NCBI GenBank assembly: GCA_040766525.1
Contig: JAXGQI010000003.1
Coordinates: forward strand, 16,335 to 80,334
Reading direction: 5' to 3'
Source of the DNA: Clostridiales bacterium
Lineage (GTDB): Bacteria > Bacillota > Dehalobacteriia > UBA7702
Length of the DNA: 64,000 nucleotides
In this document: one piece after another, positions 5,948-60,343 of the stretch
How the letters are laid out: every line of letters begins with the position of its first letter
How positions within the stretch are numbered: position 1 is the stretch's first letter
The notes under the pieces: model-generated
Database searches by the model: none
What the model was told of the DNA's origin: nothing
What the model saw: only the letters and a program-made list of their open reading frames with translations
Made by a program: the position numbers and the translations under genes

Positions 5948-6850
5948 AGGAATTGATTGATATTATTGATATCAGCAAATCATTCGATGACATCTTATAT
6001 GCTTTAAACCATGTGAGTTTACAGGTAAAAACCGCCTCCATTTTTGGTTTGGTCGGAACGAACGGCGCAGGAAAATCCACGCTGCTTAGGATTTTAGCAG
6101 GGGTATTGAAGCAGGATGCGGGCATATTTCCATTAACGGCAAAGCGCCGTTTGAAAATATCGCCGTGAAATCATCCTTTTTCTATATTTCCGATGAGCAG
6201 TTCTTTTTCCCCTAATGCCACGCCGAAAGATATGCGCAATTATTATGAGATTATTTACCCTCGTTTTGATAAAAAACCATACTTTTGATCATTTGTTTCG
6301 CCACTTCATTTCTTAGAATCGTGAAAAATCACTGATCTTTTCAAAGGTATGAAAAAACAGATCCCCCGCATCATCGCCGCCATTGCCGCCAATGTCGATT
6401 ACAGCATTTTCTGCAGATGAACCTGGACGGCTCGATCCGGTAAATGCGCTGGCGCAAAAAGCCTTTTCGCCGCGGGTTTCGATAGAGCGAGATCTAATCC
6501 AGCCATACGCTTCCCACAACGGCAGGAGTTGAAGACATTTCGGCGATCATATTGGTTTACTCCATGTAAAGAAATACATTCCTTCATCACAGGAATTGGA
6601 CGATATCAAAACCCATATCCACAAGATACAAGCGATCTTTCCCAATAAAGAATTGACGAGGGCGTGCCCCCTGATTCACCTGCGCATGGAAAGAAGGGGT
6701 TCTCTTTACGATCATCGCCCGTGGCGATACGACACGATCTTAGCAACGGTTGAAAAGGAGCACCCTACTTTTATTGAGGCTTTGCCCTTCTTAAAGAGAT
6801 TTTCATCAATGAAACGAGGTAAAGCAGATGTCCCGCAACCTCTCATATAA
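5944..6850 (+). pseudogene. ABC transporter ATP-binding protein, frame-disrupted
   Basis: Intact Walker A region ([19 protein letters not shown]) in ORF 5944-6168; the remainder is scattered over several frames. Confidence 0.75.
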
Positions 6851-8757
6851 AGGAAATCTCGCGTCTAACATGGAAAAGGACAATATGGCTGCCCTTGCAT
6901 TTGCCTTTGGCCTTCTTTTCTTTGCTTGCCGGTTGCCAACAGCATCCAGATCCAAGAAATCCAGAATTATGCCGAGGATTTTACCTTCAATATCGCCCAG
7001 CAAGTCAACAGCATCCTCGTTTTCAGTAACGCGGTATCAAAAGTCCTCTTGATTGCCGCAGCTTTGCTGGCCGGCTGTGTATTTTTCTACTATATGCACA
7101 ATAAACGGCAGGTCGATTTTATCAACAGCCTTCCTGTCAGCCGCACCAGACTCTTTTGAATCAATACATCGCCGGGGCAACCAGCGTCTTGTTTTTCCCT
7201 TTTATTGTGATGTATCTTTATAACCGTCATGTCGTCACCTTGGTTTCTGGCTATGGTTCCACGATTGGACGGCGGTTTGGAGTTCACTTCTATTCCACGC
7301 CCTCTTCTTTCTTGTCATTTACAGTTTTATCGTATTGGCGGGAACTTTAACAGGCAATCTGATCATCCAAATCATCGTTTCAGCGATTTTCTTCGCGATC
7401 CCTTCCGGTATTTCGTCTTTTTGGGAACGATGGATGCCACGGCCAGACCTTTATGCTGCTTTCAGTCATCTGTTGCACGGGCCATCCATCTTTCTCCATA
7501 CTGCTCATATCGTTTACGGCAGCAGCGACTATACGTTTGCCGTATTAGCCTCATGCCTCCTTTCCTCACCTTCTTAGTTGTAACTGGGCTGGCCCCTTCT
7601 CTCTATCGGAAACGGCCTTCGGAAGCTGCGCGCCATCGCCTTTTCTTTCGCAAAACCTCTATTACAATATCCTGTGTCATCGCACCTACGACGGCATGCA
7701 CTTTTCTTCACCAAATCGGCAATTCTGGCGGCTGGATGGTCTTCGGTTTCGTATCCGGCGCCTTCATTTGCAGCCGCATCATTGAAATTATCTATGCTTT
7801 CGACTTGGCGCGCTGCTGCCGCCATTTCCTGAGCCTGGTCATCTTCCTCCTGCTCTTTTCAGGCTTAGTGCAATCCCATTTCGATTTAACAGGGTAGCGA
7901 CCAGCATACGCCCAATGCCGAGGAAGTAACGAAGTCCGGGTCGAATTCGGCGACTATAATGTTTTTCATATACTGAATACGCGGCGAAAACGATTCCTCC
8001 CATTTCGTCATCGCCCCACATTAAACGGAAATCGCGCGAACGGCGGATGCCTATCGCCTGACGGAGAATAGCGTAATGCCGCCAATTGTAATATCGCGAA
8101 ACATGGGAAGAACAAACCAAACCATATTTTTACACGAAATGTTATTCCGCGGATACGCTCTATTTGAATGTTATTTACACCTTAAATAACGGCAAAACTC
8201 AGCACGGCGATATACCCAAGTCTTCGCGCAGGAAAATACTTGACGACTGATCACATCTTAAGCGACCGGGAACATCGGAAAACCAGATCCCCTCCGCCGA
8301 ACAAACCTATGCCGTAAAACTGGAAACTATGAGTTCTATACGATTTATGCCGGTTTTACGAAGAATATCCCTGGGCAAGACTTTGAAGAACGCCTCTTTG
8401 CTGCCTGCCGTGAAGATCTTTGATCCCTGATATCGCAACCACGAAAGAAGAATTGCCCATCGGCATGTTCTCTTCAGCAAGCGCAAAAGACGGCAGCTCT
8501 ATATGGCCAGATTTTGCCCAATCTACCCGTCCTTTGATCGAGTTTTTGCTCTTCTGGAAGAAACAGGCTATGAACAAGACTTCTTTATCCTCGAACCCGA
8601 TGAAGTCAGCTATATTTTGGCTACGACCTATGGAAATGACGACGGTAGTATCCAGTCAGAGAAAAAGATCACCGATCAAGAAGAAATTGCCGCCATTATG
8701 CAAACTACAGCCCCAATCGTGGCAATTAATTACAGTCTGCTCTATCAACGATTATAA
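6828..8757 (+). pseudogene. large ABC-2-type permease / accessory membrane protein of the YtrA-type operon, frame-disrupted
   Basis: A chain of short overlapping ORFs in all three plus frames with hydrophobic segments (e.g. LLIAAALLAGCVFFYYMHNKRQVDFINSLPVSRTRLF and LYRKRPSEAA), then a soluble tail ending at 8757. Confidence 0.55.
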
Positions 8758-8974
8758 TGAACACCTACGAATATAGGCCTACGCCCGACAACCGGGGATC
8801 CGCTACCCAGCATAAAAAAGCTGACTTCCACTATAAACATCCAAACTACCAGACATCTTCTCTCTTTTGGCGTTAATAATCCCCTTTGCCCAAAGCGTGA
8901 GGAGAGAAAATCGGCAATGACGGAACCATATATCGAGACGAAACTGAATGGTGAACAGAAATAAAAAGAGGTTC

Positions 8975-9702
8975 ATGGCGCTTTCATTGAAATCAAAATC
9001 TACGCGCGTCTACCATGTTGGGAACGAAAAAGTCGGGCATTAGGATAAAATCATCTCTCCACGGAAAAGGAGAGATTTGCTGCGTCCTGGCGACCTCCGG
9101 TTCCGAACGACGCCGTTAAATATGCTGGCAGGCTTAGAAACGACAAAAGGCGTCAGCAAATCGACTGAGCAACGCGACATTTCCGCGCTTAGATGAAAAA
9201 AGTCGCCCTTTTTCCACAAAACAACGCTTTGGTTTGAAGCTTCCAATCCACAACTGATGCTTCCATTACAGCCCTGGAAAAGGTTTTACGCGGCCATGAT
9301 TTTCGCGCTCGACAAGGCAAAGGCCTCGGAAAGGAAGCCCGGAAAGATGCTCAAACGTCCGCTCGGACTGAGCAATCACGAAACCACGGAAATGAGCGTG
9401 CAACAAACAGCGGGTGGGATTGCCAGAGCCTTCGTGTCCGCTTTTCAAGCCTATTTTGCCGACGAACCCACCGGTAATTAGATTCCAAAACCAGCAATGA
9501 GGTCATGACTTTGATGGTGCGCATGGCCAAAAAATACCGGCAAACCCTCGTGATTGTGACCCATGATATTGAAATTGCCCGCTATAGCGACCGCATCATC
9601 CATATTCTCGATGGTAAAATCGACGATGACCAACCCAATATTTCCTTACTCGCAAACCAATGTACGGAAGAAATTAATCAAACGGGAGAACGCATGGCAT
9701 GA
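8975..9702 (+). pseudogene. MacB/LolD-type ABC ATPase, frame-disrupted
   Basis: Recognisable pieces: RVYHVGNEKV, a relic of LSGGQQQRVAIARA read as MSVQQTAGGIARA, ADEPTGN, and an intact tail QTLVIVTHDIEIARYSDRIIHILDGKI. Confidence 0.75.
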
Positions 9703-10652
9703 AAAAGAAACGCTTGGCTGCCCTAATCACCATACTGATGCTGCTTTGCGCCGGCTGGACGCCGGTCCTGGCTACAGAAGAAGCCGATACGGAAATACCA
9801 ACTCAAACAGAAACATTGACGACTGCTCTTACCCCCAGCCATCATTAGCGGCTAAGGCTTTGGCGAAAAATTTGCGTCACCAACGGCAAAAATTTACGCT
9901 GAATTATACTTTAAAAAACACCAGTATGAATATGTTTGATCCAAATATGATCGCAAAAGTCAGCGGCGGAGAAAAAGTCTCGACTTCAAAGATACCGATA
10001 CGTTCTATGTGGAGAGCATCGCCTCAACGGAACAAAATCTTTAAGCATCGGCAATACCCTGATGCTGGAAGCAGTGGCGACCTCGTACCCGCATATTGCC
10101 GTATCCTATGAATACTTCGACAATGGGCGTCAAATACCCGGGGGCTGCCGATCTTAACATCAATGGTGCCGCTGCAACAGCAACAAAAAGTCCGTTTACA
10201 GAATATTTTGGCATCAGTGAAAATCCGAAATCATCACTGGGAATGAATATGAATTACAGATAGATCATCAATCGGCTACGGGAAATTTATGTCTTGGAGC
10301 GGCAGCTCAACTCTGCAGGAATCATGATCGCTTCCGCCTATTTAGAAACTTGGCTCCGTCAAGCGAATTGAACAATACAGTGGGCAGCCTTTATCTCAGC
10401 TTTGACGAGCCGGAACAGAAACGCTAAATTTCATCTTAAATTAAGAAGAACGACCATGAAACAGCCAAAGTCTCAGCCAAACATTCGCGATTGAAAATCA
10501 GCGACTACACGCCCCCCATCGAAGAGGAATCGGAGCTTCCGATCGAAGAAACCGAGTGGATTCAGCCCCATTCTCTTCCTTTTGGTCATCACCCCGATCG
10601 CTGCCGGTATCATCACCGCAACGATCCTGTTGGTAAAGAAAAAACGCGCCTA
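9699..10652 (+). pseudogene. secreted, C-terminally anchored protein of unknown function, frame-disrupted
   Basis: Signal peptide MKKKRLAALITILMLLCAGWTPVLA, then premature stops and frame changes. A C-terminal TM segment plus KKKRA* lies at 10563-10652. Confidence 0.5.
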
Positions 10653-10719
10653 AAAAGCTGCCCGCATCTTAGCGGAAGCAGAAGACGATGAGGACGATGA
10701 GGATTTCGATCTGCTTTCT

Positions 10720-12101
10720 ATGTGCTTTAGAAGCCTACTCAGGAGAAAAGTGCGCACAATTTTGACGGTGATGGGTGTCGTCATCGGGACCTGCTCCATC
10801 GTTGTCATGATCTCTCTCGGCGTAGGCCTTAACGAAATGCAGGAAGCCTCTATCAATGAGATGATGGATCTCACCGTGATCGAGGTTTATTATAGCGGCG
10901 GCACATGGAGAACATCATAGAAGAAAATAACAATCCGTCTTTGAACTCAATGATGAGATGCTGAACAGCTCTACGCGCTGGATCATGTCAAGGCGTTACG
11001 CTGGTCCTGAATCTTTACGGGGAAGCGAAAATCACCGCCGGGAAATATCAGCATGTGCAAGCAATCTCAAAGGGATCGACACCGGCAGCCTCGATTTATT
11101 CGGTTATGAACTATTGGAAGGCAATTTGATCGAGGAGAGCGGCAAGCAAAACAAAGTCCTCTTCGGTGAAGATGCTGTCTATAACTTCTTCACCCTCGAC
11201 GCCACCTGAGAACCGATTCATTTCTACCCGGATGAAACCGAGAGAACCCGACGCCGCCCTTTGACCCGATGAGCGCCAGGCTCTCCATCACCGCCGTCAA
11301 TACCAGCAAGGAGTCCACGCAAATTCCCGCCGATCTTTCGGACAGCTATAACAGCGATGGCAGTATCGGCAGCGGAGGCGACCCCGCGCCCGGCGCAGGC
11401 GCAACTGGGAAAACTTATAGCTTCCAAACTGCCGGCATTATCAAAGGCGATTACAGTAAGGACTACGGCGATTCCTATAATGCTATTTATATCGATATCG
11501 AAATGGCCAAAAAGCTCTTAAAAGAATACAATACCTAAATGGAATCAAAACCTCATTCAGCTATTATAATGCCAAGGTCAAAGTCAGCGACGTCGCCTAT
11601 GTGGAAGAGGTGGAGGCGTTCATTCAAGAACAGGGGTCACACTCCACAGCGGCGCATCAATACGGAATCACTCCTAGAAATGACCAGGATCATCCAGTTG
11701 CCTTATGGGATTGGCGCCATCTCCTCTTTAGTTGCCTTAGGCATTACGAACACGATGATCATGTCGATTTACGAGCGAACGAAGGAAATCGGCGTGATGA
11801 AGGTTTTGGCTGCCGTTTTGATGATATTCGAGCCCTCTTCTCTGTGAAGCCGGAGCTATAGGCCTTCTTCGGCGGATGTTTCGGCATCCTGGTAAGTTAT
11901 ATGATCTCTTTATCCTCAACCTGATCGCTTCCGGGATCATGCAGGCGGAAGGCACCGAGGTCACCGGTCATATCTCGGTTATCCCTCTTGGCTGGTCCTG
12001 ATGGGGACTGGCATCGCCCCTGCCATACCTTTAGTCGCCGGGTTCTACCCCGCCAATCGAGCGACGCCATCAGCGCTTTAGCAGCGATCCGCCAGGAATA
12101 A
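10720..12101 (+). pseudogene. FtsX/MacB-type ABC permease, frame-disrupted
   Basis: N-terminal LRRKVRTILTVMGVVIGTCSIV, a MacB periplasmic-domain-like piece, ERTKEIGVMKVL and a final GFYPANRA motif lie in different frames. Confidence 0.75.
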
Positions 12102-17212: not shown

Positions 17213-18136
17213 ATGAAGATCCTGGTCTTGGGAGCCGGGTCCATGGGGCTGTTTTTTGGCGCCCGCTTGGGAAAAGAGATGCCCGCCTTCCTGGAACGAG
17301 ATGAAGAAAAATGCGCTTATATTGCCGAAAAGGGCTATCGCCTGGAAATGGAGGGGGAAGAAACTTGGATCCACCCCCAGATTTCCTCAAAACCCGGCGA
17401 TTTCACCCCTCCGGATTTATTACTTTTGATGGTAAAAACCTATGATACCATTGAGGCCTTAACTTCCGCCCAAAGCTTAATCGGGCCGGATACCTATGTG
17501 ATGACCCTCCAAAACGGTTTGGGGAATGTGGAAAAAATCGCCGGATTCGCGAAGAAAGATCACATCATTGCGGGGACAACGACCCACGGCGCTTATGCCT
17601 ACGAAAAAAATCAGCTGCGCTATACCGGTGGCGGAGAGATCATCGCAGGTTATCCCTGCGGTGGAGATGATGCGTTTCTCGCCAAAGTTGCAAAGATTTT
17701 TTCAGACTGTGGCCTCCCCATCAAACCGGAACAGCAGATCAATCATGCACTCTGGACAAAAACGCTTGTCAACGCTGCCATCAATCCCTTAACTGCCCTG
17801 ATGGGGATCAAAAACGGCGCTCTCCTCCAGGATCCGGAGCTCCTCTTTTTCATGGAAAAAATTCTCGAAGAAGGGGCATATGTGGCTGAAAGGGAAGGCG
17901 TTACGCTCCTCCACCCCGATATTTTTTCCTATACCAAAACGGTCGCCGCGAAAACCGGGGCCAATTATTCATCGATGCTGATGGATATTCAGAGAGGAAA
18001 CCCCACGGAAATTTGCGCCATCAACGGGGAAATTTGCCGCAGAGGGGTTCGGCTCGGAATAAATCTTCCTTATAATATGTTAATGCAAGATTTAATCCTT
18101 GCCTTGGAAGGGAAAAAATGTTATACTTCTGATTAA
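17213..18136 (+). CDS. panE: 2-dehydropantoate 2-reductase
   Basis: N-terminal KILVLGAGSMG Rossmann motif and C-terminal SSMLMDIQRGNPTEICAINGEI; directly follows panB. Confidence 0.85.
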   Translation: MKILVLGAGSMGLFFGARLGKEMPAFLERDEEKCAYIAEKGYRLEMEGEETWIHPQISSKPGDFTPPDLLLLMVKTYDTIEALTSAQSLIGPDTYVMTLQNGLGNVEKIAGFAKKDHIIAGTTTHGAYAYEKNQLRYTGGGEIIAGYPCGGDDAFLAKVAKIFSDCGLPIKPEQQINHALWTKTLVNAAINPLTALMGIKNGALLQDPELLFFMEKILEEGAYVAEREGVTLLHPDIFSYTKTVAAKTGANYSSMLMDIQRGNPTEICAINGEICRRGVRLGINLPYNMLMQDLILALEGKKCYTSD

Positions 18137-18162
18137 ATATTTTCAGAGTAGGAGGATGACGC

Positions 18163-19831
18163 ATGAATGGATCCCAAGCCATTGTGGCAGTTTTAGAAAA
18201 GGAAGGCGTTGATACCATTTTCGGCTATCCCGGCGGAACTGCCTTGCCTTTATATGACGCTTTATATAACGCCAATATAAAGCATATCCTTACCCGGCAT
18301 GAACAAGGTGCGGCCCATGCCGCCGATGGTTATGCCCGGGCAACAGGGAGAGTCGGCGTATGCATTTCCACCTCCGGCCCCGGTGCCACCAATTTGATTA
18401 CCGGGATCGCCACCGGCTATATGGATTCTTCACCCATCGTTTTTATTACCTGCCAGGTCGCTAGAAATATGATCGGGAAAGACTCCTTTCAGGAAGCGGA
18501 TATTCGCGGCATCACAACGCCGATAACGAAGCATAATTACTTAATTAAAAAACCACAAGATCTCATTCGCTGCTTACACCAGGCATTTTATATTGCCGCA
18601 ACCGGCAGACCGGGCCCTGTGGTGGTGGATGTACCGAAAGATATCTTAATGATGGAATTGGAACCGGGCTTTGAAGAAGAAATTTATCTCCCCGGTTATA
18701 AACCCTTGTATGAAGGTAAAATCGAAGAGGTGCAAAAAGCGGCGGATATGATTGCCGCTGCTAAAAAGCCCCTGTTCTTTATCGGTGGCGGCACACGGAA
18801 CCAAGAAAAGTCCGATCTCGTCAAAGAGCTCGTCGCCAAAACCAATATCCCGGTGATTTCCAGCATGATGGGGCTGGGGGTATACCCCGGAGATGCGGAT
18901 CTCCACCTCGGCATGGTCGGCATGCACGGCACTTATGCTGCGAACCGGGCCGTTACCGACTGCGATCTTTTGATCGGTTTGGGCGTGCGTTTCGATGACC
19001 GGGTCACCGGATCAGTCTCCGGTTTTGCCCCCAATGCCAAAATCATTCATTTTGAAATCGACGCTGCGGAAATCAACAAGAACGTTCGCGTCCATCATAA
19101 AGTCTTGGCTGATTTATCCTGGTCCTTAAAACTGATCAAATTGTGGCAAAACCGGACAGCGATGACTGGACGAAACAAGTTTTGACCTGAAGAGGAAAAA
19201 CCGATCGCTTTTCCCCTGCGCGGGAGATGAGATCAAGCCACAACGGGTGATCCAAAAGATCAATGAACTGACAAAGGGCAATGCGACCATCGTGACGGAT
19301 ACCGGCCAGCATCAAATGTGGTCGGCCCAGCTCTTCCAGCCGAAAAAGCCGTTTTTCCTTTATCTCTTCCGGCGGTTTAGGCACCACAGGCTTTGGCTTA
19401 CCGGCTGCAATCGGCGCTCAATTCGGCAAAGAGAATGAAGTTTGGGCAATTGTCGGGGATGGCGGCGTTTTAATGAACTGCCAGAAATTGGCTACCGCGT
19501 CGTCGAACACAAACTCCCCCTCAAAATCATCGTCATGAACAATCGCTGCCTAGGCATGGTCTGCCAATGGCAACGCCTCTTCTATGACAAACGCTATAGC
19601 GGCTCTCTCTATGAAATAGATACCAATCTGGCGAAAATTGCCGAAGCCTTTGGCGCTAAAGGCGTGCGGGTGACGAAGCTGAAAGATCTTGCCCCCGCTT
19701 TGGAAAAAGCCAAAGGCAGCAAGAAACCCATTTTAGTAGAAATCATGGTCACACAGGAAGAAAACGTTCTGCCCATGGTACCCGCCGGGGCAGGTCTAGA
19801 TGAAATGATAGAATGGAGTGGCGAAAAATGA
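18163..19831 (+). pseudogene. ilvB: acetolactate synthase large subunit, frame-disrupted
   Basis: The first 340 aa are intact and TPP-enzyme-like. After that at least 4 frame changes occur (pieces [30 protein letters not shown] and [20 protein letters not shown] lie in different frames). Total length 1669 nt is not a multiple of 3. Confidence 0.85.
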
Positions 19832-20336
19832 TGAAAAGAACCCTCGCGGTTTTGGTGGAAGACAGACCCGGTGTTCTCACCCATGTTTCCGGCTTGATCT
19901 CCCGCCGCGCCTTCAACATCGTCAGCATCAATGCCGGCTATTCCGAAGATATCGGTTTAACCAGGATCACCGTGGTCGTAGATGTTGCCAATGAAGATGA
20001 ATTGGAACAAGTCATCAATCAGATCTCCAAATTGGTCGATGTAATCGCCGTCGTGGATCTCACCGGCGTATCTTCCATTAATCGGGAACTGGCCTTGATC
20101 AAGGTCAAAGCTTCTCCGGCAGATCGACTGGCCTCGTCGATATCGTCAATATTTTCCGGGCCAAGATCGTCGATTAATGCATCCCGACAGCATGGTCATC
20201 GAAATGACGGGAAGAAGATAAAATCGATGCGATGTGCCTGCTCGCGGGCGAAATGGGAATCATTGAAATCGTCCGCACCGGCAGAATCGCTATTTCCAGA
20301 GCGAATAAATCCGTCAAAGACTTAGCCGAAGAATAA
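19828..20336 (+). pseudogene. ilvN: acetolactate synthase small subunit, frame-disrupted
   Basis: The ACT domain (LAVLVEDRPGVLTHVSGLISRRAFNI) is intact for about 100 aa, then at least 3 frame changes within about 200 nt (VDIVNIFRAKIVD / DSMVIEMTG / DKIDAM..IVRTGRIAISR). Confidence 0.85.
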
Positions 20337-20645: not shown

Positions 20646-22307
20646 TTACTCGGTAAAAATGGAGCCGCCGAGAAATTCACGCAGCAGCGAATTACTGGGC
20701 ACCAATTCCGTCGGAATCGGCAAGATATAATCAAGAAAATCCACGAGCCAGCGAGCGGTATAATACACCGGTTGCTCCGTGTTGACTTCCAATAGGCGGG
20801 GCATGATAATCGGCTTCAACGCCGCCAATTCATAAAGCAACGAAGAATTAAAAAAGAAATCCGCATTCTCCTGATAAGGGAAAATATTCCGCTCCTCTCC
20901 CCTTTGCACCGAGGCCCAACGGATGATCGTTTCCACCGGAGAAGTCCCTCTAAACTGCATATCCCGGGTCATCCGCCTGATTAAACGGCTATCCGAACTG
21001 GAGATGGGATTAAAATCGTCAATGTTGAGCTGGGTCAAAGTGCTGATATAAATATGGCGCTTATTCTTTTTATCAATACCGGGGGTGATATTGGGATTTA
21101 AGCCGTGGATCCCTTCAATAATCAAGATTTGGTCTTTCCGCATCCGCATGGGCCGAGTCCGCTCCATACGCCTGCCGGCATGGAAATCGTAAATCGGTGT
21201 TTCCACCGTTTCCCCGGCAATCAGCGCTTTCAGATGGCTGCCGAACAGTGGCAAGTCAACCGCCTCAATCGATTCAAAATCATAATTGCCCCAGGCATCC
21301 CGCACATTCTTCTCGCGATCAACAAAATAGTCATCCATCGCAATGGTCAGAGGTTCGATCCCATTGATGCGAAACTGAATACTCAGACGATGAGAAAAGG
21401 TCGTTTTCCCCGATGAAGACGGGCCGGCGATCAAAACCAAACGGATATTATTGATATCTTCCAAAATATCATGGCAAATCCGATAAATGCTTTGGCTTTG
21501 CAACCCTTCCCCCAGTTCGATCAAATCTTGGATCTTTCCGGCTTGGATTACCCTGTTAAGCTGGGCAATCGTATTTACGCCCTGCACCTCCGCCCAACGG
21601 TCGCTGCGGTTAAACAAGAGGCCAATCTTTTCCACCGGCACATATTTGGGCACCTGTTTGGGGCTATAGCAACTTGGCGCTCTGAGAATGAAACCAACGT
21701 CAAAAGGTTCCAACTCAAAACAAGGCAAGTAGCGGCAATTGGGCACCTTTAAACCGTGAAATACTTCTAAGCTTTGGGCAATCTCGCAAAAGGGAATCTT
21801 GGTGCGGCTGCCGGTAGAAAGCAAAACTTCATGTTCCTTATCATTCCGCTGGCGATAAAAACGCTTGGCGTCTTCAACAAAGGCCCACAGGCGATGAATC
21901 GGCGTTTCTTCCCGAATCAACTTTTGCATCTCAAGTTCCAATTGATCCCGCATTTCGGCGGAAAAGGGGATCTCCCCTTGGGATTCCCAATAGGTACCGT
22001 TCTCCAAGGTATGGCGTATACGCAAGCGCCGCTCGGGAAACAAATTCTCGTGGGCCGCAAGAAGCAAGAGCCTTTGGCTCCTACGATAAATGCGTACCCC
22101 CAACTGCTCGGTCAAATCGATCCATTCGATCTTACTATCTGCGATTAAACGATAATTCAATTCTTGCAAATGACCATTGACATAAGCCGCCACAACCGGA
22201 ATATCATTCTTGGGCAAATTGGACAAAACTTCCTCCAAGCTGATACCGGGAGGAAATTGATGAGTGCCTTTGCCAATCTGCACTTTAACCTGTTTCTTCT
22301 TGTGCAC
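20646..22307 (-). CDS. TGS-domain / uridine-kinase (PRK-family) nucleoside kinase-like protein
   Basis: 553 aa. Walker A GPSSSGKTT in the C-terminal half with PRK/uridine-kinase-like context; the N-terminal region resembles the ThrRS-type TGS domain. Confidence 0.7.
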   Translation of the reverse strand: MHKKKQVKVQIGKGTHQFPPGISLEEVLSNLPKNDIPVVAAYVNGHLQELNYRLIADSKIEWIDLTEQLGVRIYRRSQRLLLLAAHENLFPERRLRIRHTLENGTYWESQGEIPFSAEMRDQLELEMQKLIREETPIHRLWAFVEDAKRFYRQRNDKEHEVLLSTGSRTKIPFCEIAQSLEVFHGLKVPNCRYLPCFELEPFDVGFILRAPSCYSPKQVPKYVPVEKIGLLFNRSDRWAEVQGVNTIAQLNRVIQAGKIQDLIELGEGLQSQSIYRICHDILEDINNIRLVLIAGPSSSGKTTFSHRLSIQFRINGIEPLTIAMDDYFVDREKNVRDAWGNYDFESIEAVDLPLFGSHLKALIAGETVETPIYDFHAGRRMERTRPMRMRKDQILIIEGIHGLNPNITPGIDKKNKRHIYISTLTQLNIDDFNPISSSDSRLIRRMTRDMQFRGTSPVETIIRWASVQRGEERNIFPYQENADFFFNSSLLYELAALKPIIMPRLLEVNTEQPVYYTARWLVDFLDYILPIPTELVPSNSLLREFLGGSIFTE

Positions 22308-22324
22308 AAGCGTTCCTCTCCTTC

Positions 22325-23421
22325 TTAGGGATTTAAGGGTAATAAAGCATCCAAGGTAAACATCCCGTCTTTACGAATGAGCTTTCCATCAAAATAAATT
22401 TCTCCGCCGCCATAGGCAGGGGTTTGACATAGGACGAGATCCCAATGGGTCGCACTTTGATTGCCATTGGGAGCTTCTTCATAGCAGGCTCCCGGCGTAA
22501 GATGAATGGAGCCCGCAATCTTTTCATCGAAAAGAATATCCCCCATGGGATCTTTGATCTCAGGATTGAGACCAAAGGCAAATTCTCCCACATAACGAGC
22601 GCCTTCATCCGTATCAAACAGCGCATTGATCCTTGCGGTATCATTGGCTTTGGCGTCAACGATCTTCCCGTCCTTAAACGTAAGAACGATATCTTTAAAG
22701 GTGAAACCCTGATTGGGGGAAGGGGTATTATAACTGATCACCCCATTGATCGAATCCCGCACCGGCGCGGTAAACACTTCCCCATCGGGGATATTGCGCT
22801 GCCCGTCACACTTGATGGCGGGAATATCCTTGATCGAAAAACTAAGATCGGTTCCGGGCCCTTTGATTTCAACCCGATCTGTCCGATTCATCAATTCCAC
22901 CAAGGGTTCCATCGCCTTCGACATCTTGCCATAATCCAAATTACAGACTCTAAAATAAAAGTCTTCAAATTCCTCCGTTGGCATCGACGCTTGCTGCGCC
23001 ATAGAATCATTGGGATAACGCAAAATCACCCACTTTGTTTTCGGTACCCGAATTTTACCATGAACCGGCTCCCAAAGCAATTTCATTTTTTGTTCTTGGC
23101 GATCATTGGGAACATTTTTTGCCATATACGGTTCTCACAACAGCGGATCCCCATATGCGTCCATCTGGCCATACGCGCTTCTTCCCATTGCCGCCGCATC
23201 GTAAAATGCTGATCCGGCGCTTCTTTCATCAAGGCCGCTTCCAAACAGGGATTTTCCAAATGCAGAAAGGGATCGCTCCAACAGCGTAAGCCTTTTCGAT
23301 CAACTCCAAAGCGAGGGCTTCGGTATTGCCGATGGCTTCGATCAGGATCTTTCCCCGGCTGCAATTGTGTAGAATACTCAATCAGATTTTTCGCCAATTC
23401 CTTCATGCGTAAATCTCTCAT
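22325..23421 (-). pseudogene. M29-family (AmpS/PepS-type) aminopeptidase, frame-disrupted near the N-terminus
   Basis: The C-terminal 266 aa are intact ([11 protein letters not shown]..., [13 protein letters not shown]). The N-terminal 100 aa (MRDLRMKELAKNLIEYS...) change frame at least twice. Length 1097 nt is not a multiple of 3. Confidence 0.75.
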
Positions 23422-23455
23422 ATAGACTCCTTCTTTCTTTTGTCCTAACCTCACA

Positions 23456-23957
23456 TCAGCGTAAGAATACCATTGCAGAAAACATCCCCATCAAAGCGCC
23501 GATAAAAACATCGGAAGGATAATGAACGCCCAAATAAATACGGGAAAGCCCCACCAAAAATGCGATCGGATAAAAAATATAGCCAATCCCCAAAAGTCCG
23601 TGGCGACGGCGGCCATCGTAAAGGCCGTAGTGGTGTGCCCGAGGGAAAGAAAAATCCCGGCATAAACTTTTCCCAAACTCGGGCCATATCTTTAGCATCG
23701 AAAGGCCGTTCTCGACGAATCAACTTCTTCCCCAATTGCACTAAAACTGGCAAAAGCAATACCGCGAAAAGCATCGTACGACCGAAAGCCGGGTCCAAAG
23801 CAAAGGACAGCAAAATATAAACAATCGTAAACGTTATACCAGCGATATAAGTAAATATAGGGAAGAAACGATCAAAGAGACGGCAATGCATCGATTGATT
23901 GATCAAGTAGAATAGATAACCATCCATCGTATGGAAAGTGCGCATACCCACCTCCAA
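23456..23957 (-). pseudogene. PAP2-family phosphatase (BcrC-like), frame-disrupted
   Basis: The three PAP2 motifs lie in three frames: RRERPF (ORF 23451-23957), SLGHTTTAF (ORF 23491-23676) and SRIYLGVHYPSDV (ORF 23456-23698). Confidence 0.75.
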
Positions 23958-28990: not shown

Positions 28991-29833
28991 TTACACTTTC
29001 AACATAATATTATCGATCAGCCGCGTCTTGCCGAAAAATACCGCCATCGCCAAAAGGATCTCTCCACTGATTTTTTCGATTGGCGCTAACGCCGGTAAGC
29101 TGACCATTTCGATATAATCGACCTGACCGGAAGTGTCATCCACCATCTTGGTCATCGCAGAAATGACCGTTCGGGCATCAAGTTCCCCTGCCGCGATCAT
29201 TTTCTCCGCAGCCAAGAGCGATTGCCGCAAAACGACCGCTTCTTGTCTTTCCTCAGGGGTCAAATACACATTGCGGGAACTCTTGGCAAGGCCATCTTCT
29301 TCCCGAACAATGGGACAACCGATAATCTCCAGCGGCTGACAAAGATCTTTCACCATTTGGCGAACGATAAACAACTGCTGCGCATCTTTCTCACCAAAAA
29401 ATGCCCATTGGGGACGCACCAGATTGAAGAGTTTATTTAACACCGTCGTCACACCGGCAAAATGATGGGGGCGACTTCTCCCGCAAAGGGGCTGATCCAA
29501 ATTGGCCACCTTGACTTGGGTCACAAAATCCGGGGGATACATTTCCTCCGGTTGGGGATGGAAAACAAGGTCGCCACCTTCTTCGGCAATCAAGCGGCAA
29601 TCCCGCTCAAAATCTCGCGGATAGACCGCCAAATCCTCATTGGGAGCGAATTGGATGGGGTTCACAAAAACGCTCACCACAACGAAATCCGCCTTTTGCC
29701 GTGCGGCTCTGATCAAGGAACAATGCCCTTCATGAAGGTACCCCATCGTAGGGACAAACCCAATGGTTTTCCCCTCTTTTTCCACCCGGGCAATCGCATT
29801 TTTCAAATCGTCAATTTTTGTAATGATCTGCAT
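28991..29833 (-). CDS. panC: pantoate--beta-alanine ligase
   Basis: GFVPTMGYLHEGHCSLI and VSVFVNPIQF motifs; 280 aa. Confidence 0.92.
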   Translation of the reverse strand: MQIITKIDDLKNAIARVEKEGKTIGFVPTMGYLHEGHCSLIRAARQKADFVVVSVFVNPIQFAPNEDLAVYPRDFERDCRLIAEEGGDLVFHPQPEEMYPPDFVTQVKVANLDQPLCGRSRPHHFAGVTTVLNKLFNLVRPQWAFFGEKDAQQLFIVRQMVKDLCQPLEIIGCPIVREEDGLAKSSRNVYLTPEERQEAVVLRQSLLAAEKMIAAGELDARTVISAMTKMVDDTSGQVDYIEMVSLPALAPIEKISGEILLAMAVFFGKTRLIDNIMLKV

Positions 29834-29834
29834 T

Positions 29835-30323
29835 TTACCAAATTCCCTCTGTATAGAACATAATTTTTTCTTCTCCGCTATAAGCGGCCAATACTTCCGC
29901 CACCGTACCTTGGCCCGGGATCAACCCCGTAGGCCAAATATCCGCCAAAGGTTGCAAAACAAAAAGGCGCTCATGCAACCGGGGATGAGGAACTTCTAAA
30001 CGGGGCAAAGAAATCTTTTCTTCTCCATAAAGTAAGAGATCAAGATCAATATTGCGGGGACCCCAACGAATGAGCCGCTCCCGACCCATTTCCGCTTCGA
30101 TCCCCTGACAAAGATCGAGCAAAGCCAAGGGAGAAAGTGCTGTTTCAATCAGAACAGCGCCGTTTAAAAACCAATCTTGATCGGTATATCCCACCGGTTC
30201 CGTTTGATAAAGGCGGCTTTTTTCTACTATCGTACAGTGTTTTTCTAAATGGGATATGGCCCTTTGCAGATTGGCCAATTTATCCCCCATATTGCTGCCG
30301 AAAGCGATCGCTGCTTTCACCAT
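29835..30323 (-). CDS. folK: 2-amino-4-hydroxy-6-hydroxymethyldihydropteridine diphosphokinase
   Basis: AFGSNMGD..., YQTEPVG and RWGPRNIDLDLL motifs. Confidence 0.9.
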   Translation of the reverse strand: MVKAAIAFGSNMGDKLANLQRAISHLEKHCTIVEKSRLYQTEPVGYTDQDWFLNGAVLIETALSPLALLDLCQGIEAEMGRERLIRWGPRNIDLDLLLYGEEKISLPRLEVPHPRLHERLFVLQPLADIWPTGLIPGQGTVAEVLAAYSGEEKIMFYTEGIW

Positions 30324-30679
30324 TATTTTGTCCTCTCAATTTCCACCGCCGCGGGAAAATAAGCGCTCTTCCCCGGCGCCTTCGGTTTATCCACCCGCAC
30401 CTTGACCTTGTTAACCGCAAATGCTGCCAAAATTGCGGCAGCGATCGTTTCCGCCAAAGTTTCTATCAGGTCGAAACGCCGTTCCAGCGTAATCTCTCTC
30501 ACCATTTCATAGACTGCGCCGTAATCAACGGTATCGAGTAAATCATCGCTTTTCCCCGCCGGGGCCAAATCAAGATCGAGAACAAGGGAGACATAAAAAT
30601 CCTGGCCCTCTTCCTTTTCCTGCGGTAAGACCCCGTGATAAGCGTAAAAATGAAGCTGCTCCAAATAAATTTTATCCAT
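30323..30679 (-). CDS. folB: dihydroneopterin aldolase
   Basis: MDKIYLEQLHFYAYHGVLPQEKEEGQ... and DTVDYGAVYE. Start trimmed to ATG 30679 (the track ORF runs 38 codons further into folP). Confidence 0.88.
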   Translation of the reverse strand: MDKIYLEQLHFYAYHGVLPQEKEEGQDFYVSLVLDLDLAPAGKSDDLLDTVDYGAVYEMVREITLERRFDLIETLAETIAAAILAAFAVNKVKVRVDKPKAPGKSAYFPAAVEIERTK

Positions 30680-31871
30680 TGTAAACGCCCCGAACGATCG
30701 CATCCGACATCTTGGCAATCCGCACCATTTCCTTAACATCGTGAACACGCACCATATCGGCGCCGCGGGCGATACCCAAAGCGACGGTAGCACCGGTGCC
30801 TTCTACCCGCTCTTCCGGGGGCAGATCCAAAACATGGCCGATCGTCCGTTTTCTGGAACTGGCCAATAAAAGCGGCATGCCAAAGCATTTGAAATCCGCC
30901 AGTTTATTCATAATCGCTAAATTATGATCCACATCCTTCCCAAAACCGATCCCCGGATCAAGGATGATCTGCTCCCGGCGGCAACCGCCGGCGAGGGCCA
31001 AATCGATACTCTTTTGGAAGAACTGGTACATCTCGCTGAACAGGTCTTCGTAAACCGCTTCCGTCTTATTGTGCATTAAGATGAGGGGGCAATCATACTT
31101 TGCCGCCACCGTGGCCATCTGATCATCCGCCTGGCAACCCCACACATCATTGATGATTTGCGCACCGGCCGCCATGGCGGCGTCCGCTGTGGCCGCCTTA
31201 TAGGAATCAATGGAAACCGGGATCTTCAATTTCCCGGCTAAGGCTTCAATCACCGGCAATACCCGGCGCATCTCCTCATCCGCATCCACCGGATCATGAC
31301 CGGGCCGGGTCGATTCCCCGCCCACATCGATGATATCTGCTCCGTCTTCTTCCATCTGCAAAGCATGGGCAATGGCTTTTTCCGTATCAAACCAGGTGCC
31401 GCCATCAGAAAAGGAATCAGGGGTAACATTCAAAATCCCCATGATCAGCGTTTTCTTCCCGAATTCCATTTCCCCGCCCCGATAGGTCATCACCCTTTCC
31501 CGGGGGAGCACCGCTTGCATCAATTGGATCAACTCTTCGGAAAACTTCGGCAGCCCAAAAGGCTGCAGCTTCATTTTCTTCGCCAAGGCTTTTAACTGGA
31601 GCCGGTTTCCCATGAGCAAAACATTCGTAGGCCCGGCATTGTCCATCAAGGCGTCACGATGGGTAGCCGCGTCGCCGCCCAAAGAAAGCATCGTCTCCTT
31701 CAAAATATGTACAGCAGGGTTTTTTACATTTTCCACCAAAACATTATAATGCTGGGTCTTTTGTCCCATATACCCGGACCCGAAATCTTCGCTCTTCACA
31801 AACTGAGCGATAAATTCTCGCGCCTCCGTTGGCGTGCGCAGGTCTACCATGCGTAAATTAAAACGGCCCAT
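30672..31871 (-). CDS. folP: dihydropteroate synthase with an N-terminal extension of about 130 aa
   Basis: GILNVTPDSFSDGG and DIIDVGGESTRPG motifs begin near residue 140. Start at ATG 31871 behind a GGGAGG RBS. Confidence 0.88.
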   Translation of the reverse strand: MGRFNLRMVDLRTPTEAREFIAQFVKSEDFGSGYMGQKTQHYNVLVENVKNPAVHILKETMLSLGGDAATHRDALMDNAGPTNVLLMGNRLQLKALAKKMKLQPFGLPKFSEELIQLMQAVLPRERVMTYRGGEMEFGKKTLIMGILNVTPDSFSDGGTWFDTEKAIAHALQMEEDGADIIDVGGESTRPGHDPVDADEEMRRVLPVIEALAGKLKIPVSIDSYKAATADAAMAAGAQIINDVWGCQADDQMATVAAKYDCPLILMHNKTEAVYEDLFSEMYQFFQKSIDLALAGGCRREQIILDPGIGFGKDVDHNLAIMNKLADFKCFGMPLLLASSRKRTIGHVLDLPPEERVEGTGATVALGIARGADMVRVHDVKEMVRIAKMSDAIVRGVYNG

Positions 31872-31891
31872 TTCCCTACCTCCCAATCAAT

Positions 31892-32401
31892 TCAATATCT
31901 CACCTCGGGTCTCTTTTCCCGGTCGAACTTTTTACAGCGATCCAGCACAGGGCAAGTTGAACAGGGGCGCGACTCCTTATCGGCTTGATAAAGCAGACGG
32001 GAAAGCCCGGCATGTCCCTGTTCTCGATGGTTTTTGATCGCTTCCAAGATCAAATTGATCTCACCTGCGGGAAAGCCCGCCGCAAGTAGCAATGGGCGGG
32101 CTAAAACCGCGCTTTCCGCGGCATGATCCAATGTAGGATATTCATATTCTTTGAAACGCCCAATATCATGGAGCAAAGCTGCGGCGTAAAGCAGCTCCTT
32201 GATGTTGTCAAGGTGGGGCAAAGACAAATCATCGTCCTTACTCTCCAAATAGAGAATATATGCGACCCTGGCAGTCTGCCAAAAATGCTCCATATCATGT
32301 TTGCAGAAAACCCGCGTCTGTTCCCATTTTGTATTTTGGGCACAATACTCCTGATAAATGGGATCAGACAAGATCTTCTCTATTCTTTCCATCCGCACCA
32401 T
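31892..32401 (-). CDS. HD-domain phosphohydrolase
   Basis: H...HDIGR motif; 166-169 aa; lies between ftsH and folP. Confidence 0.7.
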
Positions 32402-34333
32402 AAGTGAAATTTAAGTTGATGCCGGGCTGGAGATCCGTCTTTTCCGATCTCGGCTCCCGTACCGGCGTCTCCTTTTCCCCTTCATTATCGTCATCATTGC
32501 GAAGATCTTCTACCGGTTCGCTCTGTTCTTTCAGTTTTTCGCCTGTCATCAAAGCGATAAACTCTTCTGCTTCGATGGTTTCCTGTTCATAGAGGGTCTG
32601 CGCAACGAGATGCAGTTTATCCATATGGGTTTCTAAAAGCTCTCGGCATTTCTCATAGGCGGCGTCGATCATCTTCCGGGCTTCTTTATCGATCGCCCAG
32701 GCAACCTCTTCGGAATAGGCTTTGTCTTGGGTCAATTCACGGCCTAAAAAGACCTGGTCTTGGCTCTTCCCGAAGGACATGGGCCCCAACTCTTTCGACA
32801 TACCGTAACGGGTGATCATCTTCCGTACCGTTGCTGTTGCCCGTTCTAAGTCATTTTGGGCGCCGGTGCTGATATCCTTCAAGACAAGTTCTTCCGACAA
32901 ACGACCGGCCAACAGAACCACGATCTCATCTTCCATATGGGATTTGGTGACATAATTCCGATCTTCCTTGGGCAACATTAAGGTATAGCCGCCGGCCTGT
33001 CCCCGCGGAATGATGGAAATCTTATGGACAGGGTCTGTATTGGGGGTAAAATACGCCGCCACAGCATGACCCGCCTCATGATATGATACAAGCTTACGCT
33101 CGCTCTGACTGATCACTTTACTCTTCTTTTCCGGGCCTGCAATCACGCGTTCACTGGCTTCTTCCATTTCCGCCATATGGATCTTCCGCAAATTGCGCCG
33201 GGCGGAAAGCAAGGCCGCTTCATTAACCATATTGGCCAAATCGGCCCCGGTAAAACCGGGGGTTCTCCGGGCCAAGATTTCCAAATTAACATCATCGGCC
33301 AAGGGTTTCCCTTTGATATGGACACGCAAGATCTCTTCCCGGCCTTTGACATCAGGAATGCCGACAGAAATCTGCCGATCAAAACGACCGGGGCGTAAGA
33401 GCGCCGGATCCAAAATATCGGGCCGGTTGGTGGCTGCAATCACGATGATACCGGAATTTTCGGCGAAACCATCCATTTCCACCAAAAGCTGATTCAATGT
33501 CTGCTCTCTTTCATCATGGCCACCGCCGACGCCGGCACCGCGCTGGCGGCCGACCGCGTCGATTTCATCGATGAAAATGATACAGGGAACATTCTTTTTC
33601 GCCTGTTCGAACAAATCACGCACCCGGGAAGCCCCGACCCCGACGAACATTTCCACAAAGTCGGAACCGCTGATGGAGAAGAAGGGAACCCCCGCTTCCC
33701 CGCTACAGCTTTGGCTAAAAGCGTTTTCCCGGTACCGGGATAGCCGAAGAGCAAAACGCCTTTGGGGATCTTCGCTCCCAGCATATTGTATTTGCGATTA
33801 TCTTTCAAAAAGTCAACGACTTCCTGCAATTCTTCCCGTACTTCATCAACGCCGGCAACATCGGCAAAGGTGATCTTCTGGGCATCAGCGGACTGTAATT
33901 TCGCTCGGCTTTTCCCGAATTGCATCACCTTTGAACCGCCGCCCTGGCTTTGGTTCATCAGGAAGAAAAAGAGCCCGACCAAGAGCAAGATCGGCAATAC
34001 GGTCCCCAACAAACTAAGCCACCAGGGACTGCCCGCCGCCTGTTCAAAAGAAAAGCTCCCGCCGTTCTCTTCGACCAAAGTCCGAAGACCGGAATCCGGT
34101 TCAATCGTGGCGGCATACAGGCTGTTTTCACTGTCCTCTCCTTGTACTGTCCAGGCATTTTCATCTGCAACGGCCGTTACTTTGGAGAAATCACCCGCTT
34201 CTACTTTTGTGTAAAACTCAGATGAAGTTAACTCCGTGATCTCTGTACCGGAGCCGCCTCCGATGAATTGAAAAAAAGTGATGACCAAAAATACAATCAG
34301 TATATAAATGGTGAGATTCTTAAAGAACTTCAA
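32364..34333 (-). pseudogene. ftsH: ATP-dependent zinc metalloprotease FtsH, interrupted by a single 1-nt frameshift
   Basis: N-terminal ORF 33494-34333 reads through [16 protein letters not shown] and then goes out of frame. ORF 32364-33656 continues (F)[16 protein letters not shown]...HEAGH. Adding one G to the G4 run (C4 at 33698-33701 on the plus strand) restores [18 protein letters not shown]. Confidence 0.9.
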
Positions 34334-34934
34334 AGTAGTCCTCCCTTCAAAAAACGCTTCCTAAACAAAAGTTTATCTCTCTATTATGTCTGCTTACGGC
34401 TATTTTATCTGTTTATTATAGCATAGTAATCCGTCTTTTCAAAGTCTTTCACCGGGAATTCTCAAAATATTACATCCTCCTGCAATCGGTGCTCCCAGCG
34501 AATTTTAGACTCGCGGTAACCAGTTGAGAGAAACTGGCAGAGGCAATATGCAAAAAAGTCCTGCCATTTTCCCCCGGCTTTGCCCAGCGTTTCTTCATCT
34601 TCGTACTTTGGTGATCAATCAAAAAAACTCTGTATTTACACAAAAGGATCCTGTTGCTGCAAGCTACAAAGGAGCGTATTTAGGAAGAGCGCCCTGCAAT
34701 CGCCCCGAAGGGTCTGCTGGCCGTTACAATCGCCTCTTGAATGATTTTATGCCCCAGCTGCATTTTTTATTTTAATATTGTTTTAAAATTTGGGCAAGTA
34801 CCTGTCCGGCCACGCGAGGGCAAAAGCCGCTACCAAATGTTATTGATAAAATAATCTGATTCTTTGACAGTACCATCCCTTTTCTGATAAAATATAAATG
34901 TTTAGGTTATTAAGTGAGATAGGAGTTGAACACC

Positions 34935-36465
34935 GTGAGTATCGTAGAGCAAAAACTTGCTGAATTAAAAGAAAAGCAAGCCATCAATGGTTTGGGCGGC
35001 GGAGAAAAGAGAATTGCCGCGCAACATGAGAAAGGGAAACTAACCGCTGATGAAAGGATAGAAGCACTCTTTGATAAAGGCACCTTTGTGGAAGTCGACA
35101 GTTTCGTCAGCCACCGCTGCCATGAATTCGGAATGGAAGGGGCGACAATGCCGCGTGACGGGATCGTGACCGGCTATGGCCAGATTGATGGTCGCATCGT
35201 CTATGCCTATGCCCAAGACTTCACGGTATCGGCGGGGTCTTTAGGGGAAATGCACGCACAAAAAATCTGCAAAGTCATGGACTTGGCAATGAAAGCGGGC
35301 GCTCCCTGCATCGGCATCAATGATTCCGGCGGCGCCAGAATCCAGGAAGGCGTCGACGGCTTGAACGGTTATGGCGAGATTTTCAAGAGAAATTCTCTCG
35401 CATCCGGCGTAATCCCCCAAATCTCCGTGATCATGGGGCCTTGTGCCGGCGGCGCTGTTTACTCTCCCGCATTGACCGACTTCATCTTCATGGTTGATAA
35501 GACAAGCCAAATGTTCTTGCAGCCACAACGTCGTCAAACGGTTACCGGAAGCGTCAGCGCGGTGAAGCGGGCGCCAGACCCACAATAAAGAGCAGAATGC
35601 GCTTCTATGCTAAAAATGAAGGTTGCATCCCGCGCAGATCAAGCAACTTCCGGTAAGCTATATCCTCAATAATGAGGGAACCGGCCCCGGCCAATCAATC
35701 AATCGATCCCATCGATCAGGCGGAAAAATCTTTTGCGCAAATTGATCCCCGATCAAATGAACGGGCTTTATGACATGATGGGCGCAATCAAGGCCATCGC
35801 CGATGATGGCGAGTTCTTCCCAGTACAACTGTCTATCACTAAAAATATCATTACCGGTTTCTGTACTTGGGCGGCAGCTTCCGTTAGGGTCATCGCCAAT
35901 CAACCCAAATTCTTTGCCCGGCGCCCTCGATATCAATTGCTCCGATAAGGCCGCTCGTTTCATTCGTTTCTGTGACGCCTTCAATATCCCCATCGTCACC
36001 TTCGTCGACACCCCGGGATATCTCCCCGGTGTTAAGCGAAAGAGGGCGGCATCCTCCGCCATGGGGCAAAATTACTCTATGCATATTCAACAAATGTGCC
36101 GAAGATGACCGTCATCACCAAAAGCTTTGTGGGCATATGCCTGCCATGTGCTCCCAAAGCTGCTGAACGCCGACACAGTTATCGCCTGGCCGACTGCGGA
36201 AATCGCCGTCATGAGGGGCACAAGGCGCTGCCAATATCGTTTTCGAAAAGAAATCCAGAAACGCCGAAGACAAGACGCCAAGCGCCAGAAGAAAAATCGC
36301 CGAATATGAAACGGCACCGTATCCCTATTGCTGCGCTTCCCGCGGTTTTTTGTCGACATGACCAATCGATCCTGCCGAAACCCGCTATTATCTGATTCGC
36401 TCGCCCGAAACGATAAGCAGATCGAAGACCGTCCGGAAAAAACACGGCGTATGCCGCCGCTTTAA
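34935..36465 (+). pseudogene. acyl-CoA carboxylase carboxyltransferase (propionyl-/methylmalonyl-CoA type beta subunit), heavily frame-disrupted
   Basis: The first ~195 aa are intact ([11 protein letters not shown]..., [23 protein letters not shown]). After that there are many frame changes, but motifs stay readable ([49 protein letters not shown], terminal MPPL*). Confidence 0.85.
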
Positions 36466-37644
36466 TCATAATATCATTATCATAACCGCACGTCAAACGA
36501 GTGGTTGCTTCAATTCCTGCTTCAGGATTTTGCGACCAGCGTCACCCGCTGGGCGCTGGCGCTCTGTTGATCGAAATTTCAAACCCATTTCACAATTTAT
36601 GGACATTTTGATCATAGTGACCCGAAAAAACACATACATTATATAATAAACATTTTTTAAAGAGCACCGAATTATTTTTTCGCTATATTCACGCTACGCT
36701 TTCGCTATCGCTGAGCTCATATCAAAACACACCCCATATGATAACCATACTATATGTTTCCTTTCAATCGCACCGCCATATAATCAATAATCATCAATAT
36801 GCCCGTCTCTCATGCGCAGTCGAAGGCAAAATGCATCGCTAAAAGAGAACCCCAACACTCCTTCTTCCGGTACAGTATGTCCTAACTCCTAGTGATTCTA
36901 CATTCCCTACTTCTAAGTCACAAAACCATGTGGGAAATATCTCAATAATTCGACTTTGTTCGTTCACAAATAATGCAAATACGATCCGAAGAATCCAGCC
37001 AAACTTTTCAAACCGCTCCCATTTTCTCTTTCCTATATAGATCGTACAAAAAAAATGAGCCTCCGAGAAGAAAATAATTCTAAAATAAATTCAACACTCG
37101 CTACATTCGATGTCCCAAAACACGGCAACAAAATCTTTTTCTTGCTTAATTTCGCGCAAATTTTCTACGAATTCACCGGCATATTTTTGCGTTATTTTGC
37201 AGAGCTGGCCCGAGCAATCATTGCATTAAAACCGCCAAAAATTTTTCATTTATCCTATTCAATATTTATAATCGACATTTTGATTCTGCCGGTATTTTTG
37301 TCGGCCCAGTTTTTGTAACAAAAAAATATGATATAAAAATATTGCGATCTCCTGCGAGATCGAGCATAATTTTGCTCCAAAACCATATCAAACTGCCTTT
37401 TTCAGAGCTTTCCAATAAAATTTGAGGGTAAAATTTTTGTTTTTCCCCAGCACCCCTGGGGCTACGCCAAAATTTCACTATAAAATTTTCGATTTATTGA
37501 ATAATGGTATAATTCGCTAAAACATCCAGTAGTACGCCGCAAAATTTTTGTAAACATTTGTTTTGCGCAAAAGGCATAACTTTTGTGCATCCAGATCAAT
37601 ATGAAGATTTATGTTCGGCAAAAATGAAAGGAGTCATCAAACCT

Positions 37645-58901: not shown

Positions 58902-60038
58902 ATGAAAAAGAATCCGGATCAAACAATAATAGAACCATTGTGGACGAAAAATTTCCTCCTCATCATGGCAACCAATCTTGTGGTTTTTTTGGGCTTTCAG
59001 ATCATTATGCCCATTATGCCTCTCTATATCCAATCTCTCGGCGTCAACGAGAGCCTGATCGGCATCGTGACCGGGGCTTTCACCTTGACCGGAGTTTTTA
59101 TCTGTCCCTTCGCCGGGCGGATCTTAGATGAGCGTGGGCGGCTCCCCATCTACATGCTGGGGCTTGCTATCTGCGCACTGTCCATTTTTTCTTATTCCCT
59201 GGCCAATACGGTTTTTCTCCTCCTCATGTTTCGGCTGATCCATGGCTTGGGCTGGGGTGTTGCTACCACCGGTGCCGGCACAATCGCCAGCGATTTGATT
59301 CCCCGCCCTCGGCTGGGGGAAGGGATGGGCTACTATGGTTTGACAACCGTCTTTGCCATGGCAATCGCCCCTTCCATTGGCTTACAACTGATCCATTATA
59401 CCAGTTATCATAACATATTCTTATTGTCGGGAACCATCACCATCGGCGCTCTTTTGCTCGCATTGCCGATTCGCATACCACCAATGGAGAAAAAACCGGA
59501 ACAAAAAGGCAGTCTCTTTGAGAAAACCGCTTATCGTCCCGCAGTCGCCATCTTTTTTATCACCCTCACCTATGGCGCCGTCGTAACCTTTTTAGCCATC
59601 TATACAACCCAGCTGGGAATCGCCAATATCGGCCCCTTCTTTACCGTCTATGCCATCACCCTCTTAGCAGTGCGGCCTTTAAGCGGAAAGTTAGCCGATA
59701 AAAAAGGAGATTCCATCGTCATCATCCCCGGGATCCTCGCCCTGATCATCGCCATGCTCCTTTTGGCATTCGCCAAAACGCTTCCCGTTTTCTTGCTGGC
59801 CGGCTTTGTCTACGGCGTAGGTTTCGGCGCCACGAATCCGGCGCTTCAAGCACTGGCGGTACGAAAAGTGGATCCAAGCCGCCGCGGAGCTGCCAACAGC
59901 ACCTATATGAACGGCTTTGATCTTGGCATCGGCTTAGGCGCCGTCATTTGGGGATTGATCAGTTCCGCGACCAGCTACTCTTTTATGTATGTGCTGACGG
60001 TGATTCCTTGCTTTTCTCCCTTTTCTTCTATCTATTGA
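58902..60038 (+). CDS. MFS transporter
   Basis: 378 aa, about 12 TM segments, loop motif GRILDERGR between TM2 and TM3. Confidence 0.85.
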   Translation: MKKNPDQTIIEPLWTKNFLLIMATNLVVFLGFQIIMPIMPLYIQSLGVNESLIGIVTGAFTLTGVFICPFAGRILDERGRLPIYMLGLAICALSIFSYSLANTVFLLLMFRLIHGLGWGVATTGAGTIASDLIPRPRLGEGMGYYGLTTVFAMAIAPSIGLQLIHYTSYHNIFLLSGTITIGALLLALPIRIPPMEKKPEQKGSLFEKTAYRPAVAIFFITLTYGAVVTFLAIYTTQLGIANIGPFFTVYAITLLAVRPLSGKLADKKGDSIVIIPGILALIIAMLLLAFAKTLPVFLLAGFVYGVGFGATNPALQALAVRKVDPSRRGAANSTYMNGFDLGIGLGAVIWGLISSATSYSFMYVLTVIPCFSPFSSIY

Positions 60039-60068
60039 TCGGAAAAGGGAATCAAAATCCAAGGAAGT

Positions 60069-60098
60069 TTTGCATAAATAGCGTAGATTTGCTATACT
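60069..60098 (+). promoter_or_regulatory. sigma70-type promoter for the small membrane protein gene
   Basis: TTGCAT, 18 nt, TATACT. Confidence 0.35.
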
Positions 60099-60140
60099 AA
60101 TGGCAAGTATTTTCATGAAATCGGATAAGGAGGTACGACC

Positions 60141-60311: not shown

Positions 60312-60343
60312 CAAACGAATAATAACCCTATAAACATAAAAAA

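Follow-up and report, generated by a model that had tools for sequence, protein, structure and literature searches.

The single-base deficit in ftsH of a draft Clostridiales genome is most likely an assembly or consensus error

We find that the ftsH gene in the window (the whole 64,000-nt stretch of DNA analysed here) is broken once, at a run of four Gs, and that the gene itself is most likely intact, with the deficit at 33698-33701 resulting from an indel error made in base calling or in the assembly consensus. A consensus error is favoured because frameshifts are in excess throughout the genome, and an artefact is also favoured because ftsH is otherwise perfect, its relatives are intact and no backup copy was seen. 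According to this explanation, the genome, a low-quality draft or a metagenome-assembled genome, would bear many 1-nt insertions and deletions, some isolated and some in dense patches, and these errors would break conserved, indispensable genes at random. ftsH would have received one such error, in its short G run, and the true DNA would have the extra base. Low sequencing depth, incomplete polishing or a noisy long-read platform may lie behind such errors. The interruption would then be biologically minor, since what lies underneath it is most likely an ordinary ftsH.

One gene in two open reading frames

The complete ftsH coding region lies on the minus strand at 32364..34333 and would consist of 656 codons and a stop if one base were added; as written, this one gene appears as two ORFs. 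The 5' ORF (33494..34333, minus strand, 279 aa) encodes TM1, FtsH_ext, TM2 and Walker A (GYPGTGKT); it then continues out of frame for 67 codons before reaching a stop. The hydrophobic stretches are visible in its translation, and PF06480 (FtsH_ext) matches residues 8-92. The 3' ORF (32364..33656, minus strand) is 430 aa long when read from its first GTG start and contains the rest of the AAA+ domain, the AAA lid and the M41 peptidase, with Pfam matches to PF00004, PF17862 and PF01434 (E = 2.9e-70). Walker B (IIFIDEIDA), the second region of homology (SRH) and the HEAGH zinc site are all found in this 3' ORF. The frame switches at the G4 run (plus-strand C4, 33698..33701), which is one base short in comparison with relatives; here, at 33720-33660, the minus-strand sequence is GCC AAA GCT GTA GCG GGG AAG CGG GGG TTC CCT TCT, and the context of the site on that strand is GCGGGGAAGCGGGGG.

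Frame-aware alignment with the closest intact FtsH (P0002, 656 aa) gave 569 of 655 identical residues, or ~87-88% at the amino acid level, and identity was 87% on either side of the shift. Over the full 656 aa, the alignment contains one 1-nt deficit as the sole lesion and no in-frame stops, with the deficit placed by the aligner at ~33703, at residue 211. An earlier note on this DNA, made from its sequence, had described a gene split by one missing base after Walker A, with this as the only defect in 656 codons and with the second region of homology and HEAGH carried by a 430-aa downstream ORF, and all of this was confirmed by the alignment and the ORFs.

Both pieces are collinear on TIGR01241 (the FtsH equivalog), with the 5' piece covering model positions 5-222 (176 bits) and the 3' piece positions 232-598, so that about 10 model positions are lost at the shift. 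The 3' piece alone scores 623.6 bits, exceeding the curated cut-off of 600. Like known FtsH proteins (TIGR01241; PF06480 + PF00004 + PF17862 + PF01434), the gene has the full architecture with Walker A, Walker B, SRH and HEAGH; it differs from them in that the frame is broken once, after residue ~211, in the assembly as written. Judged on its sequence, the gene is thus an ordinary FtsH in every family feature except the uninterrupted single frame, which in the assembly as given is prevented by the one 1-nt deficit.

Relatives have one more base at the shift site

In a DNA alignment of the shift site, all 14 of the aligned family- and class-level relatives were one base longer than the window. 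P0002, the closest intact homologue, reads GCGGGGGAAGCG, with a G5 run at the position of the shift, and the two sites can be written as GCGGGGGAAGCGGGGG for P0002 and GCGGGG-AAGCGGGGG for the window. This agrees with the suggestion in the earlier note that the missing base is a G. A loss from the third position of the Ala codon just before it (GCN GGG GAA) would explain the deficit equally well, without a G5 run; another relative (L014) reads GCC GGG GAA at the same site. An uninterrupted FtsH frame was found in 12 of 12 high-quality relatives with a profile match.

Two further searches were directed at closer sequences. Among 5.8 billion proteins, no non-self protein was more than 88% identical to the window FtsH, and a pattern scan of metagenome contigs gave 0 matches to a same-species contig with either G4 or G5 at the site.

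The operon around ftsH is clean and the divergent neighbour is not

As had been proposed from the sequence, ftsH heads an operon with the order HD-folP-folB-folK-panC, which we confirmed by ORFs and by Pfam labels on a syntenic contig. The part downstream of ftsH (28994..32401, minus strand) consists entirely of uninterrupted ORFs: the HD gene (31892-32401, 169 aa), followed by folP (30672-31886), folB (30326-30664), folK (29838-30323) and panC (28994-29833), the last four with 0 frameshifts and 0 stops each. The arrangement carboxyltransferase / ftsH-HD-folP-folB-folK-panC is identical in L038, the Logan contig that carries P0002, as judged by ORFs and Pfam labels. The 6.3 kb around ftsH are otherwise clean, with 0 events in folP, folB, folK, panC and a rubrerythrin-like gene, and because of this the ftsH event, taken as an error, is an isolated one, outside any dense patch.

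The divergent gene that adjoins ftsH upstream encodes a carboxyltransferase (PF01039-type; 34926..36468, plus strand) and is broken into at least four ORF pieces by 11 single-base frameshifts (5 deficits and 6 excesses). These span from ~35562 to 36410, while the first ~210 codons are clean. Once frame-corrected, the protein shares 79% identity with its intact L038 orthologue of 517 aa, with 0 in-frame stops, a pattern that looks like a dense patch of errors and not like decay.

One irregularity was seen in L038, a locus that is otherwise intact. Its HD gene (L038 7934-8338) is called at only 134 aa, whereas the window HD ORF has 169 aa and that of L039 has 167 aa; the window HD ORF matches L038 in two frames, with the switch at residue 91. 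Because of this change of frame, the L038 HD gene may itself be frameshifted.

Frameshifts are in excess throughout the genome

The assembly to which the window belongs is a 1.58-Mb draft of 52 contigs, estimated at 67% completeness. As a reference we used a genome of the same family that is 97% complete (G006), taking 400 kb of it and searching its non-overlapping ORFs of at least 200 aa against the draft. By tblastn, 14 of the 92 orthologue-like genes were split between two frames (~12 after discounting two tandem-paralogue cases), compared to 0 of 103 frame-switched in the reciprocal control, where ORFs of the draft were searched against G006 DNA. A frame-aware protein-to-DNA aligner, which was written for this analysis and has some false-positive rate at ~60% identity, called 91 events, which fall in 29 of the 92 genes. 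The reverse control of the aligner, again with ORFs of the draft against G006 DNA, gave 27 mostly single calls but is confounded by out-of-frame extensions of stop-to-stop ORFs, and the tblastn result of 0/103 serves as the control instead. A raw blastn indel count was discarded, as at 77% identity it over-counts (45 gap openings in the carboxyltransferase, compared to 11 by the frame-aware method).

The called events cluster strongly (dispersion index 5.8), and the counts for single genes are 13, 12, 9, 8, 7, 6 and then smaller numbers. Genes affected include those for MurJ, the lipid II flippase (12 events), an ECF-type ABC ATPase (9), an IspH(LytB)-S1 fusion (8), a PBP transpeptidase (7), UvrC (6) and, inside the window, IlvB, the acetolactate synthase large subunit (~4 called events). 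Since a viable cell cannot have lost MurJ, IspH, S1 and other indispensable genes together, these breaks are in all likelihood not real. In genes that had truly decayed as far as 6-13 frameshifts each, numerous substitutions and nonsense codons would be expected too. We observed neither: in the corrected frame, the median identity to G006 is 58.4% for broken genes and 58.8% for unbroken ones, and the 14 multiply frameshifted genes have 0 in-frame stop codons between them. The equal identity and the lack of nonsense codons lead us to reject true genome decay and point to indel noise, since sequence error characteristically leaves indels without substitutions.

Genes with at most one event have an event rate of 0.17 per kb, which probably includes some false aligner calls. 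For a gene of 1.97 kb, this rate corresponds to an expectation of ~0.3 events, or roughly half of that if the tblastn-level count is used, so that a single event in ftsH would be unremarkable and would need no special explanation.

Not every observation fits an error equally well. The clean 6.3 kb around ftsH count against it, as does the presence of the same GGGGAA in the only congener (see below). The proportion near homopolymers of at least 4 bases is 0.48 for the events, compared to 0.36, a weak enrichment that also counts against the error reading; a model of pure homopolymer undercalling accordingly finds weak support only and cannot explain all of the noise.

In such assemblies, indel errors are known to give rise to spurious frameshifted pseudogenes; they are more severe at low coverage, and completeness estimates stay depressed until a frameshift-aware correction is made (Cooley & Wright 2024, PMC11017572; Cusco et al. 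2021, PMC8103633). As in those draft, low-coverage or long-read assemblies, we see single-base indels that fragment conserved and essential genes, a depressed completeness and no excess of substitutions or nonsense codons in the broken genes. What differs here is that the errors are patchy and tied weakly to homopolymers, and that the artefact is deduced by comparison. The low completeness estimate may partly reflect broken marker genes.

Alternative explanations

The earlier note had listed a consensus error, a recent or phase-variable slippage event, a loss tolerated through a paralogue and translational frameshifting, and had not chosen among them. The genome-wide burden, which had gone unnoticed despite the 11 frameshifts next door, now strongly favours the first. 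If the frameshift were real, the cell would depend on recoding or on some unknown bypass, as the cut lies in the ATPase core of an essential protease present in a single copy.

Next in order comes a genuine mutation, which we consider unlikely: ftsH would have been inactivated by a slipped-strand deletion that arose recently within the G run, whether in a recent or minority lineage or in cells that tolerate it through an unassembled paralogue or a suppressor. The G4/G5 run is a plausible slippage site and the clean surroundings would suit a real event, but given the indel load across the genome an artefact is the simpler explanation, and ftsH carries no other sign of decay. As for a paralogue, a profile search found no second ftsH in the assembled part of this 67% complete genome, returning only the two halves of one gene, and each of the four relatives of genus g2 that were searched has a single FtsH above the cut-off, which is intact. 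Tolerated loss with a paralogue is thus unsupported by the search, although a third of the genome is unassembled, leaving room for another copy, and some relatives of genus g3 do have two FtsH genes.

It is very improbable that the shift is real and is bypassed by recoding, either through a -1 slip of tRNA-Gly on G_GGG or through polymerase slippage, perhaps as a regulatory device. Such a reading, under which an essential housekeeping protease would be made by recoding, would fit with the perfect conservation of the rest of ftsH on both sides of the shift. Geometrically, a -1 shift is possible on GCG GGG A, where GGG in the P site can re-pair with G-GG, but G GGG AAG does not fit the X XXY YYZ heptamer pattern, and AAG in the A site cannot re-pair with GAA. 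In E. coli dnaX, programmed -1 frameshifting makes use of an A AAA AAG heptamer, an upstream SD-like element and a downstream hairpin. ftsH would likewise need a -1 shift to restore the protein, but it has no tandem-slippery heptamer, no significant structure and no conserved shift. The 113 nt from the shift site onward fold with an MFE of -43.6 kcal/mol, compared to a shuffle mean of -39.1 (z = -1.24), and 23 of 200 shuffles were as stable; relatives outside the genus are all in frame (14 of 14 aligned at the site, and 12 of 12 high-quality relatives with a profile match); and the many other frameshifts in this genome cannot all be programmed. Known transcriptional slippage uses A/T runs of ~7-9 bases or more. 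The G4 run is far shorter, and because of this transcriptional slippage at ftsH is unlikely. The heptamer, fold and conservation results all support the opinion, already given from the sequence, that translational frameshifting is unlikely. A variant in which the deficit is real in a sole-copy ftsH, maybe common to the sister species, and is read by a -1 P-site slip or by polymerase slippage appears just as improbable.

A genuinely split gene, whose two polypeptides would assemble into a functional FtsH, is scarcely credible: both ORFs are long and conserved, but the break falls within the AAA+ alpha/beta core, leaving Walker A on the 5' piece and Walker B on the 3' piece. The last 67 residues of the 5' piece are out of frame, the 3' piece lacks a membrane anchor and has only an internal GTG as its start, and no relative is split.

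The congener carries the same kind of noise

Only one other genome of the genus is present in our collection (G001, 75% complete). Its ftsH has 12 frameshift events, all within the first 280 codons (the 5' half of the gene), and its carboxyltransferase has 8. The homologous site of G001 also reads GGGGAA, which could be taken as a lesion common to both genomes and hence as evidence that the lesion is real. We rejected this argument, as G001 is short by two bases and not by one, and the site sits amid the densest noise of that genome. For these same two reasons G001 gives no independent support for a real lesion, even if a shared one would, strictly speaking, still be compatible with the sequences. 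In G001, the locus (L009 / L040-L041; G001:C16, ~29800-32550) consists of patchy noise with clean sequence after it.

Because G001 carries the same patchy noise, both genomes of the genus are, from these comparisons, unreliable for calling pseudogenes. The heavy and patchy load of 1-nt indels in the window genome and in its congener means that broken genes, pseudogenes, decayed islands and split proteins in either of them are to be presumed artefacts pending reads.

Further irregularities in the window and genome

Other parts of the window also show irregular reading frames. The IlvB gene (~17863-20119, plus strand), whose G006 orthologue contains TPP enzyme N, M and C domains, has called events near 19141, 19170, 19349 and 19500, while tblastn places a frame switch at ~19212-19223. 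At ~22028-23467 on the minus strand, 3 frameshift events were called in the gene orthologous to that of a 367-aa G006 protein. Two stretches of the window, 4001-12000 and 60001-64000, are poor in ORFs: the longest ORF over any given base averages ~100-137 aa there, compared to 250-430 aa elsewhere; these could be further indel-dense patches, or non-coding or mobile DNA. Elsewhere in the same genome, on contig C8, the orthologue of one G006 ORF (r167_322) has 7 in-frame stops and 0 frameshifts, unlike all other genes tested; it may be a true pseudogene, or else the G006 ORF may be a shadow ORF.
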